Shown here: piece after piece, positions 27,941 through 30,433 of the stretch | Numbering within the stretch: position 1 is the first letter of the stretch | How the letters are laid out: every line of letters begins with the position of its first letter | Assembly (NCBI RefSeq): GCF_003790525.1 | Contig: NZ_CP033635.1 | Direction: 5' to 3' (one strand) | DNA length: 64,000 nucleotides | DNA from: Escherichia coli | GTDB taxonomy: Bacteria > Pseudomonadota > Gammaproteobacteria > Enterobacterales > Enterobacteriaceae | Position numbers and translations under genes: made by a program | The notes under the pieces: model-generated | The model's database searches: none | What the model saw: only the letters and a program-made list of their open reading frames with translations | What the model was told of the DNA's origin: nothing

Positions 27941-28366
27941 ATGGAGATACGCGTATTTCGCCAGGAAGATTTCGAAGAGGTCATCACCCTTTGGGAGCGT
28001 TGCGACTTGCTGCGTCCGTGGAACGATCCGGAAATGGACATCGAGCGTAAGATGAACCATGACGTCAGTTTGTTTCTGGTCGCTGAGGTAAACGGTGAAG
28101 TGGTCGGAACGGTGATGGGCGGTTATGACGGGCATCGCGGGTCTGCTTATTATCTTGGCGTGCATCCAGAGTTTCGTGGGCGTGGGATTGCTAATGCGTT
28201 GCTTAATCGGTTGGAGAAAAAGCTGATTGCTCGCGGCTGTCCGAAAATTCAGATCAACGTGCCGGAAGATAACGACATGGTGCTCGGAATGTATGAACGC
28301 CTGGGATATGAACACGCCGACGTGCTGAGTCTGGGTAAGCGTTTGATTGAAGATGAAGAGTACTGA
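27941..28366 (+). CDS. ypeA: GNAT-family N-acetyltransferase
   Basis: ORF trimmed to ATG 27941 ([14 protein letters not shown]); acetyl-CoA-binding motif [10 protein letters not shown]. Confidence 0.88.
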
Positions 28367-28802
28367 GTTTCATCCTGTCCATTATGATGCGCACGGTCGC
28401 CTGCGTTTACCCTTGCTCTTCTGGCTTGTGCTATTGCTTCAGGCGCGAACCTGGGTGCTGTTTGTCATTGCCGGTGCGTCGCGCGAGCAGGGTACTGCGC
28501 TGCTAAATCTGTTTTATCCCGATCACGATAATTTCTGGCTGGGGTTGATTCCCGGTATTCCGGCGGTGCTGGCATTTTTGCTGAGTGGTCGGCGGGCTTC
28601 ATTTCCCCGTATCTGGCATGTGCTCTATTTTCTGTTGCTGTTGGCGCAGGTGGTTTTACTTTGTTGGCAACCGTGGCTGTGGCTGAACGGTGAATCCGTT
28701 AGCGGTATCGGTCTGGCGCTGGTAGTGGCGGATATCGTGGCGTTAATCTGGCTGCTGACCAATCGACGTTTACGCGCTTGTTTTAATGAAGAAAAAGAAT
28801 AA
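28347..28802 (+). CDS. yfeZ: Inner-membrane protein of unknown function
   Basis: 151-aa hydrophobic ORF overlapping ypeA 3' end by 20 nt. Confidence 0.8.
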
Positions 28803-28862
28803 CGGCACTTTTTGGTGAATTTGCACTCCAAGCAACGTTATTGAATAACCAAAGGAAGTGAC

Positions 28863-29438
28863 ATGAAATCGCTGCGTTTAATGTTATGCGCTATGCCGTT
28901 GATGCTGACCGGCTGTTCCACGATGTCGTCAGTTAACTGGTCGGCCGCTAACCCGTGGAACTGGTTTGGATCATCCACCAAAGTGAGCGAGCAGGGCGTG
29001 GGTGAATTAACGGCGTCCACACCACTGCAAGAACAAGCCATTGCTGATGCGCTTGATGGCGATTATCGCCTGCGCAGCGGAATGAAAACCGCGAACGGCA
29101 ACGTGGTGCGCTTTTTTGAAGTGATGAAAGGCGACAACGTGGCGATGGTGATTAACGGTGATCAAGGCACGATCAGCCGCATTGATGTGCTGGATAGCGA
29201 TATTCCTGCTGACACCGGTGTTAAAATCGGTACACCGTTTAGTGACCTTTACAGCAAAGCATTTGGCAATTGCCAAAAGGCCGACAGTGATGATAATCGT
29301 GCCGTCGAATGTAAAGCCGAAGGCAGTCAACATATTAGCTACCAGTTCAGCGGGGAATGGAGTGGCCCTGAAGGGTTAATGCCTTCGGACGATACCCTGA
29401 AAAACTGGAAAGTCAGTAAAATTATCTGGCGGCGTTAA
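28863..29438 (+). CDS. yfeY: Lipoprotein of unknown function
   Basis: 191-aa ORF with lipobox (LMLTGCS) after signal peptide. Confidence 0.85.
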   Translation: MKSLRLMLCAMPLMLTGCSTMSSVNWSAANPWNWFGSSTKVSEQGVGELTASTPLQEQAIADALDGDYRLRSGMKTANGNVVRFFEVMKGDNVAMVINGDQGTISRIDVLDSDIPADTGVKIGTPFSDLYSKAFGNCQKADSDDNRAVECKAEGSQHISYQFSGEWSGPEGLMPSDDTLKNWKVSKIIWRR

Positions 29439-29533
29439 TTTGCGTCTGAACAAACCGCCGCCGCGAAAAAACACGTAAAATAGCGCACAACAATGCCACG
29501 GATTGCGTGGCATTATTATTTTCAGGAGGAACA

Positions 29534-30433
29534 ATGTCTCAGGTTCAGAGTGGCATTTTGCCAGAACATTGCCGCGCGGCGATTTGGATCGAAGCCAACG
29601 TGAAAGGGGAAGTTGACGCCCTGCGTGCGGCCAGTAAAACATTTGCCGACAAACTGGCAACTTTTGAAGCGAAATTCCCGGACGCGCATCTTGGTGCGGT
29701 GGTTGCCTTTGGTAACAATACCTGGCGCGCTCTGAGCGGCGGCGTTGGGGCCGAAGAGCTGAAAGATTTTCCGGGCTACGGTAAAGGTCTTGCACCGACG
29801 ACCCAGTTCGATGTGTTGATCCACATTCTTTCTCTGCGTCACGACGTGAACTTCTCTGTCGCTCAGGCGGCGATGGAAGCCTTTGGTGACTGCATTGAAG
29901 TGAAAGAAGAGATCCACGGCTTCCGTTGGGTTGAAGAGCGTGACCTGAGCGGCTTTGTTGACGGTACAGAAAACCCGGCGGGTGAAGAGACGCGCCGCGA
30001 AGTGGCTGTTATCAAAGACGGCGTGGATGCGGGCGGCAGCTATGTGTTTGTGCAGCGTTGGGAGCACAACCTGAAACAGCTCAATCGGATGAGCGTTCAC
30101 GATCAAGAGATGATGATCGGGCGCACCAAAGAGGCCAACGAAGAGATTGACGGCGACGAACGTCCGGAAACCTCTCACCTGACCCGCGTTGATCTGAAAG
30201 AAGATGGCAAAGGGCTGAAGATTGTTCGTCAGAGCCTGCCGTACGGCACCGCCAGTGGCACTCACGGTCTGTACTTCTGCGCCTACTGCGCGCGTCTGCA
30301 TAACATTGAGCAGCAACTGCTGAGCATGTTTGGCGATACCGATGGTAAGCGTGATGCGATGTTGCGTTTCACCAAACCGGTAACCGGCGGCTATTACTTT
30401 GCGCCGTCGCTGGACAAGTTGATGGCGTTGTAA
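29534..30433 (+). CDS. yfeX: Dye-decolorising (DyP-type) peroxidase
   Basis: ORF trimmed to ATG 29534 ([18 protein letters not shown]) with AGGAGGA RBS. Confidence 0.9.

Follow-up and report, generated by a model that had tools for sequence, protein, structure and literature searches.

The genes ypeA, yfeZ, yfeY and yfeX of Escherichia coli lie side by side on one strand, at positions 27941-30433 of a 64,000-nucleotide stretch of contig NZ_CP033635.1 (RefSeq assembly GCF_003790525.1). This whole stretch is referred to as the window. An earlier annotation made from the letters alone (the sequence-only reading) had described the genes as a compact, poorly characterised cluster that could be one operon with a common envelope- or haem-related function. 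Apart from the length of the ypeA/yfeZ overlap, the gene set, its coordinates, orientation and spacings are confirmed by the open reading frames, by matches to Pfam and NCBIfam profiles and by the RefSeq annotation of an identical genome. Over bases 27700-30560 the window has 100% identity to several complete genomes, SMS-3-5 among them, and 5425 of 5426 complete E. coli genomes contain a match to at least 80% of this interval. In the annotation of the 100%-identical genome, amiA-hemF (minus strand) is followed by ypeA, yfeZ, yfeY and yfeX (plus strand) and then by convergent pbp4B-murP. The divergent placement of amiA-hemF upstream of the set, also described before, is borne out by this annotation, with a spacer of 213 nucleotides (nt) between amiA and ypeA. 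In E. coli K-12 the four genes (b2434, b2433, b2432 and b2431, from ypeA to yfeX) have the same order and the same regulatory sequences, and the two loci differ by strain-level substitutions only; the K-12 promoter hexamers (Shimada 2014) and the sequences flanking the K-12 transcription start sites (TSSs) (Kim 2012) match the window. A scan of the whole window at Rfam gathering thresholds returned tRNAs only and no match inside the locus. The locus is a known, annotated stretch of the E. coli core chromosome and holds nothing outside known kinds. Its features are collected in Table 1.

Table 1. Genes and regulatory features of the ypeA-yfeX locus, in window coordinates.
Feature	Position	Strand	Description and basis
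Distal promoter region of ypeA with published TSS (27777)	27738-27777	+	164-nt leader; Kim 2012
Proximal sigma70-like ypeA promoter, TTGGCT-17-CATAAT	27878-27906	+	Consensus scan; no TSS mapped there
ypeA	27941-28366	+	GNAT acetyltransferase, 141 aa; open reading frame, RefSeq, Pfam/NCBIfam
ypeA/yfeZ overlap, 14 nt	28353-28366	+	Likely translational coupling site; kept in 75 of 81 loci
yfeZ	28353-28802	+	DUF2919 membrane protein, 149 aa; open reading frame, RefSeq, Pfam
Candidate sigmaE-type yfeY promoter, GGCACTT-N16-TCCAA	28804-28831	+	Motif scan and conservation
yfeY	28863-29438	+	DUF1131 lipoprotein, 191 aa; open reading frame, RefSeq, Pfam/NCBIfam
FNR-like site, TTGCG-N4-AACAA	29440-29453		7 of 10 consensus positions; predicted centre -42.5 from the yfeX TSS
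yfeX promoter: -10 TAAAAT (29476-29481), published TSS 29489	29476-29489	+	Conservation and Kim 2012
Hairpin AAUGCCACG/CGUGGCAUU with U-rich tail	29492-29519	+	yfeY terminator inside the yfeX leader; fold, covariation, Term-seq
yfeX	29534-30433	+	Cytoplasmic DyP-type haem peroxidase, 299 aa; open reading frame, RefSeq, Pfam/NCBIfam
Bidirectional intrinsic terminator	30454-30490		Common to yfeX and convergent pbp4B; abuts the pbp4B stop codon

YpeA scores 77 bits against PF00583 (cutoff 20.7) and 259.8 bits against the equivalog NF002959 (cutoff 124). It carries the acetyl-CoA motif A (Q/R-x-x-G-x-G/A) as RGRGIA at residues 79-84 and is 90-100% identical across Enterobacteriaceae. Near-identical chains named YpeA are present in PDB entries 2PDO, 4QUS and 4QVT; a literature search for the acyl acceptor showed YpeA only among screened candidates, with no substrate. 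YfeZ matches PF11143 at 169.4 bits (cutoff 27.2) over profile positions 1-145 of 146, and its four hydrophobic segments identify it as a polytopic membrane protein. The DUF2919 family is small (176 clusters at 50% identity), and for YfeZ a structure search found no solved relative. YfeY matches PF06572 (DUF1131) at 282 bits and NF007990 (RpoE-regulated lipoprotein) at 337 bits, has an LTGC lipobox with the cysteine at residue 18 and a serine at +2, and has a solved structure (PDB 2QZB). YfeX contains both DyP domains (PF04261 and PF20628), scores 301.9 bits against TIGR01413 (cutoff 100.5) and bears the characteristic DyP residues, namely the GXXDG motif as GFVDG with distal Asp143, proximal His215 and distal Arg232; its structure is deposited under the name YfeX (PDB 5GT2), and its gene is preceded by a Shine-Dalgarno sequence AGGAGG at 29524-29529. 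The description of the genes as poorly characterised still fits their function and no longer fits their structure, since crystal structures of YpeA, YfeY and YfeX are available. Assignment of YfeX as an EfeB-type deferrochelatase/peroxidase exported by the twin-arginine translocation (Tat) pathway was rejected (TIGR01412, 44.5 bits against a cutoff of 428; no twin-arginine signal at the N-terminus). EfeB of the efeUOB system is, like YfeX, a haem peroxidase of the DyP type for which a role as deferrochelatase was once claimed. It is, however, the Tat-exported subunit of an iron-uptake operon, whereas YfeX lacks a signal peptide and is transcribed from a promoter of its own.

The overlap between ypeA and yfeZ had been put at 20 nt, counted from a TTG at 28347; this was wrong, and it measures 14 nt from the conserved ATG at 28353. 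The TTG was rejected as the yfeZ start. Six bases 5' of the ATG, it forms the wobble-variable end of an Ile codon, is not conserved and in many species reads TCG or an in-frame TAG; in alignments, the N-termini of distant DUF2919 proteins fall at the ATG start. The overlap is kept in 75 of 81 Enterobacteriaceae loci, and in these neither the ATG nor the junction GAAGATGAAGA varies. No local RNA structure was found at the ypeA/yfeZ junction (fold z -0.28). Because yfeZ lacks a usable Shine-Dalgarno sequence and begins, at its ATG, 14 nt before the ypeA stop codon, it is probably translated by ribosomes finishing ypeA. The retained overlap and the lack of a good Shine-Dalgarno sequence thus support the coupling that had been suggested for the pair, and we infer that ypeA-yfeZ is a translationally coupled bicistron. 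The transcription unit 'ypeA-yfeZ' has also been listed in a published survey (Shimada 2014).

Two promoters were recognised in the amiA-ypeA spacer. A TSS at 27777, 164 nt 5' of the ypeA ATG, has been mapped with 51 reads (Kim 2012, PMC3415461, supplementary table), and bases 27761-27774 are at least 95% conserved among 76 distinct enterobacterial amiA-ypeA spacers. Both hexamers of the proximal promoter are conserved in the same spacers, and they are the TTGGCT and CATAAT given for the ypeA-yfeZ unit (Shimada 2014). The 164-nt ypeA leader is unusually long and contains this second conserved promoter-like element. The published TSSs of ypeA (27777, plus strand) and amiA (27800, minus strand) face each other, which gives the two leaders an antisense overlap of about 24 nt. 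At 27843-27852 the spacer contains a strongly conserved ATTATGCCAC block, and the heptamer ATGCCAC is common to the ATTATGCCAC block and the 5' arm of the yfeX-leader hairpin (29493-29500), which may be due to chance or to a shared protein-binding half-site.

The yfeZ-yfeY spacer is 60 nt long. Alignment of 68 distinct enterobacterial yfeZ-yfeY spacers shows two nearly invariant segments, GGCACTTTTT and ACTCCAA, with freely varying bases between them. The motif GGCACTT-N16-TCCAA is one mismatch away from the sigmaE consensus, which work by Rhodius and colleagues in 2006 is said to have set as GGAACTT-N16-TCAAA. Compared with the promoters of the sigmaE regulon, the site matches six of seven -35 positions, having GGCACTT in place of GGAACTT, and it has the 16-nt spacer and the TCNAA of the -10 element. 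A search of the window for exact GGAACTT-N15-17-TCNAA gave no match, and the one-mismatch motif occurred three times, where shuffled sequence gave an expectation of 1.9. Such a count is not significant by itself, so the case for the promoter is one of position and conservation. A second match to the relaxed motif, which served as a positive control, lies directly 5' of yfeK, a published sigmaE gene (GAAACTT-N16-TCAAA at 41481-41508 on the minus strand, 34-61 nt 5' of the start of yfeK at 41079-41447); yfeK-yfeS is the published sigmaE unit. Upon sigmaE overexpression, yfeY was up 3.3-fold and yfeX was not significantly changed in a published table that groups yfeY yfeX as a putative or known operon (Bury-Mone 2009). 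A weak TSS with 7 reads has been mapped at 28633, inside yfeZ and 230 nt 5' of yfeY (Kim 2012, PMC3415461). In other Escherichia (L003 6448-6597, L005 6448-6857, L006 and L007), one to three units of the repetitive extragenic palindromic (REP) or bacterial interspersed mosaic element (BIME) type are inserted 3' of the yfeZ stop codon; they lengthen the spacer from 60 to 205-466 nt and leave the predicted yfeY sigmaE promoter intact downstream.

The yfeY-yfeX spacer contains a hairpin that the sequence-only reading missed, as it did the conserved promoters in both intergenic spacers. The 9-bp stem at 29492-29514 folds with a free energy of -14.3 kcal/mol (z -3.7 to -4.3) and is conserved across 74 distinct yfeY-yfeX spacers; 87.7% of cells are paired and four pairs show compensatory changes, compared with 22-56% pairing in slid controls. 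The tail after the hairpin is interrupted in E. coli (AUUAUUAUUUU) and is an uninterrupted run of 6-8 T in most other species. Published Term-seq data place transcript 3' ends 15-16 nt 5' of the yfeX ATG, corresponding to 29518/29519, with about 30,000 and 41,000 average reads in two conditions; the 3' end has a Rho score of 0.76 with no significant Rho region, and it scores 10.9 as an intrinsic terminator against a threshold of 3.0 (Adams 2021, PMC7815308, Supplementary file 3). Stem-loop, U-tract and a Rho-independent in vivo 3' end, the marks of an intrinsic terminator, are thus all present at 29492-29519. The hairpin starts 3 nt after the yfeX TSS. In this respect the yfeX mRNA resembles those with ompA-type stabilising 5' stem-loops, since it likewise opens with a stable hairpin preceded by three unpaired nucleotides; Emory, Bouvet and Belasco reportedly found in 1992 that the 5'-terminal stem-loop of the ompA leader stabilises E. 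coli mRNA. Unlike the ompA-type leaders, the yfeX hairpin has a U-rich tail and a mapped transcript 3' end.

The promoter of yfeX lies immediately upstream of this hairpin. The sequence T-A-n-A-A-T at 29476-29481 is invariant in the 74 spacers and ends 8 nt before the TSS at 29489, which lies 45 nt 5' of yfeX and has 17 reads; a second 5' end with 8 reads has been mapped at 29524, 10 nt 5' of yfeX (Kim 2012, PMC3415461). Inspection of the aligned spacers by eye showed no canonical -35 or extended -10 element, so the promoter is likely to be activator-dependent. In chromatin immunoprecipitation sequencing (ChIP-seq), a sigma70 peak 11 nt from the yfeX TSS measured 133 aerobically and 524 anaerobically, and an FNR peak called by three algorithms was centred about 25 nt 5' of the TSS (Myers 2013, PMC3688515). 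Anaerobic induction of yfeX has been reported by independent papers. The FNR-like site is about 18 nt from the FNR peak centre and is a weak match when taken alone, equally good matches being found at 0.47% of window positions. A class II FNR promoter has its site near -41.5; what yfeX offers is a weak match (7 of 10) at -42.5 together with the ChIP-seq peak and no listed FNR-dependent change in expression.

The terminator 3' of yfeX folds on both strands (-20.2 kcal/mol on the plus and -24.5 kcal/mol on the minus strand; z -4.9 and -5.2) and is flanked by A and T runs, as expected of the strong bidirectional terminator that had been proposed to close the set.

We consider it likely that the locus is a conserved neighbourhood of three differently regulated transcription units and not one operon. 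The first unit would be the ypeA-yfeZ bicistron, read from sigma70 promoters in the amiA-ypeA spacer. The second would be yfeY, switched on under envelope stress from its own sigmaE promoter; because no terminator separates yfeZ and yfeY, ypeA transcripts probably run into yfeY as well. Transcripts arriving from upstream would mostly stop at the intrinsic hairpin 15-20 nt before the yfeX start codon. The third unit would be yfeX, driven mainly by its own -35-less, oxygen-responsive sigma70 promoter, at which RNA polymerase occupancy is about four-fold higher without oxygen and near which FNR is bound, and transcription of yfeX would end at the bidirectional terminator common with pbp4B. Because the yfeX promoter starts 3 nt before the hairpin, the same structure would be both the yfeY terminator and the 5'-terminal stem-loop of the yfeX mRNA, where it could stabilise the mRNA or abort part of the transcripts as a RNA of about 30 nt. 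This reading separates yfeY from yfeX more firmly than the published grouping 'yfeY yfeX' does (Bury-Mone 2009). The natural insertions, that is, the REP elements in Escherichia and the inserts between ypeA and yfeZ in six species, agree with independent units. The supplement of the SMRT-Cappable-seq study has no entry for ypeA, yfeZ, yfeY or yfeX.

Several observations weigh against three independent units. The predicted sigmaE promoter of yfeY was assigned from motif and conservation only, and two earlier studies listed yfeX as sigmaE-regulated. No FNR-dependent expression change of yfeX was seen under the authors' conditions (Myers 2013, PMC3688515). DirectRNA-seq coverage in the 800 nt on either side of the hairpin is similar (121 and 88), which leaves room for read-through past the hairpin into yfeX. 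The order and spacing of the four genes are also constant over 80 species, which an accidental neighbourhood would not predict.

The hairpin may go beyond simple termination. Tentatively, we regard it as possible that it is a dual-purpose insulator, which stops transcription coming from the sigmaE and ypeA promoters and in which a regulated choice between ending and read-through sets the level of YfeX. If so, each yfeX transcript would either end as a RNA of about 30 nt (29489 to 29518/29519) or carry a protective 5' stem-loop.

Of the other explanations, the one that survives best is a functional module without co-transcription, in which YfeZ, an exported partner (YfeY in enterics) and YfeX would act jointly and selection for this link, and not for a common mRNA, would keep their genes adjacent; we find it rather doubtful. 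Every one of the 80 sampled Enterobacteriaceae species has the four genes in one and the same order, with spacers of about 60 nt (yfeZ-yfeY) and 93 nt (yfeY-yfeX), so that the co-occurrence expected by the sequence-only reading holds in this family. Wherever the contig allows, hemF-amiA lies divergent from ypeA-yfeZ-yfeY-yfeX in all 80 species loci. Between ypeA and yfeZ, six Enterobacteriaceae species carry inserts of 0.2-1.6 kb, and in two of these a second DUF2919 paralogue takes the overlapped position next to ypeA. This diverged paralogue (34-36% identity) lies at 5504-5932 of L029 (Pseudocitrobacter vendiensis) and at 4359-4787 of L046, with the orthologous yfeZ further downstream.

Outside Enterobacteriaceae the gene order decays, with opposite-strand genes intervening or yfeX absent. 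In one genome, L083, all four genes lie within 7 kb but are interleaved with genes of the other strand. About a dozen distant DUF2919 contexts were sampled singly, a narrower DUF2919 alignment having given only Enterobacteriaceae loci. In three distant loci a YfeX-like DyP gene comes no more than two genes after a DUF2919 gene. Two of these, L089 (Aliivibrio) and L095, have DUF2919, then a secreted protein of 129-131 aa in the middle position and then a YfeX-type DyP, beside nap and crr-ptsI-ptsH; L095 is called Vibrionaceae-type only from its nap and pts neighbours. In the third, the taxonomically unassigned L088, DUF2919 stands directly before the DyP gene. The arrangement in L089 and L095 is that of VF_1900-VF_1898 of V. 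fischeri, which Dailey et al. (2011) noted as a putative operon of three genes with yfeX last. These genes, of the type DUF2919, exported protein and YfeX-type DyP, follow an order like that of enteric yfeZ-yfeY-yfeX. The Vibrionaceae-type loci differ, however, in having no ypeA, other spacers and, as the middle gene, the non-homologous secreted protein in place of YfeY. Homology of YfeY to the 129-131 aa protein was rejected (no BLASTP match; hhalign probability 0.2%). This secreted family of about 130 aa (L089 5462-5851, L095 4464-4859 and L084 1159-1554) has a signal peptide ending LSPLAMA/DW and no Pfam match, and its gene is always directly 3' of the DUF2919 gene in Vibrionaceae-type loci.

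Apart from the unrelated middle proteins, the functional module is opposed by loci that lack the association. The Pantoea sp. A4 locus (L082) has ypeA, yfeZ and yfeY with no overlap and no adjacent yfeX, and the contig L087 is like it, with yfeZ and yfeY kept and yfeX not next to them. In L082, AAACTT-N16-TCAAA is still recognisable 5' of yfeY. In L095 a canonical terminator splits the middle gene from the DyP gene. More distant DUF2919 genes adjoin lolCDE or a DUF350-DUF1190-GSP_synth set, or lie in a Salmonella island, and the common surroundings of nap and ptsHI-crr point to inherited synteny. If there is a durable pairing, it is that of DUF2919 with DyP, to which ypeA and yfeY would be Enterobacterales additions; this is suggestive only, because it comes from about a dozen contexts with shared flanking synteny. 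An ancient gamma-proteobacterial functional trio of DUF2919, exported protein and DyP is a weaker possibility. Of four distant loci, three (L083 8004-8030, L089 5895-5936 and L095 5011-5037) also have a stable leader hairpin 5' of the DyP start codon, in unrelated sequences (z -3.1, -3.4 and -2.2; 0.15 in the fourth). The Aliivibrio hairpin (L089) sequesters the Shine-Dalgarno sequence and the start codon. These leader hairpins are a hint only.

The second explanation concerns the transcript end between yfeY and yfeX. The 3' end at 29518/29519 could result from RNase processing in an AU-rich stretch, the hairpin merely protecting the upstream fragment. The second 5' end at 29524 lies only 5 nt beyond it, and the E. 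coli U-tract is interrupted (AUUAUUAUUUU), both of which would suit a processing site. We nevertheless regard processing as unlikely, because the intrinsic-terminator score is well over its threshold and the same stem is followed in most other species by the uninterrupted T run of a classical terminator. Termination at the hairpin is the reading retained here.

Least likely is the single four-gene operon of the sequence-only reading, running from a ypeA promoter to the terminator after yfeX with one envelope or haem function: it is favoured by the co-orientation of all four genes and by short spacers (-14, about 60 and about 93 nt) whose length is kept in 80 of 80 Enterobacteriaceae species, by the lack of a terminator between ypeA, yfeZ and yfeY and by the similar coverage on both sides of the internal hairpin, but it is opposed by internal promoters with mapped 5' ends and strong conservation, by the strong in vivo 3' end at an intrinsic terminator between yfeY and yfeX, by the different responses of the genes to sigmaE and oxygen, and by the REP elements or opposite-strand genes inserted in other lineages. 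A single operon would be free of internal promoters and terminators and uniformly regulated, and the locus is neither. The independent promoters and terminators that had been named in advance as evidence against an operon are largely present, in the form of internal 5' ends, conserved promoters and the intrinsic terminator. The operon proposal thus stands for the ypeA-yfeZ pair and falls for the whole set, and no evidence ties the set to one envelope- or haem-related pathway.

Other features were noted elsewhere in the window. At 40165-41447, the annotation of the identical SMS-3-5 genome has a convergent cysM 2 nt after yfeK, which leaves no room for yfeS (b2420). K-12-based papers list yfeS after yfeK, and the gene appears to be missing in this strain. 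An IS4 transposase gene (42437-43783) lies between crr and pdxK, and the interval between yfeD and gltX contains frameshifted IS200/IS605 tnpA and InsQ/TnpB-family pseudogenes (60947-62589). In the eut operon (eutS to eutK, 4500-24900) no foreign gene is annotated between eutA and eutB, where K-12 carries the CPZ-55 prophage.

The promoters, the internal 3' end and the FNR and sigma70 occupancy are already contained in published genome-wide tables, and the value of the present analysis is one of careful annotation. The corrected picture is that of three regulatory units, in which yfeY belongs to the envelope-stress response and yfeX follows oxygen, and phenotype or expression data for one of the four genes should not be transferred to the other three. 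Two small leads, the position of a terminator within the leader of yfeX and the recurrence of the DUF2919-DyP neighbourhood, could help in finding the in vivo role of YfeX.

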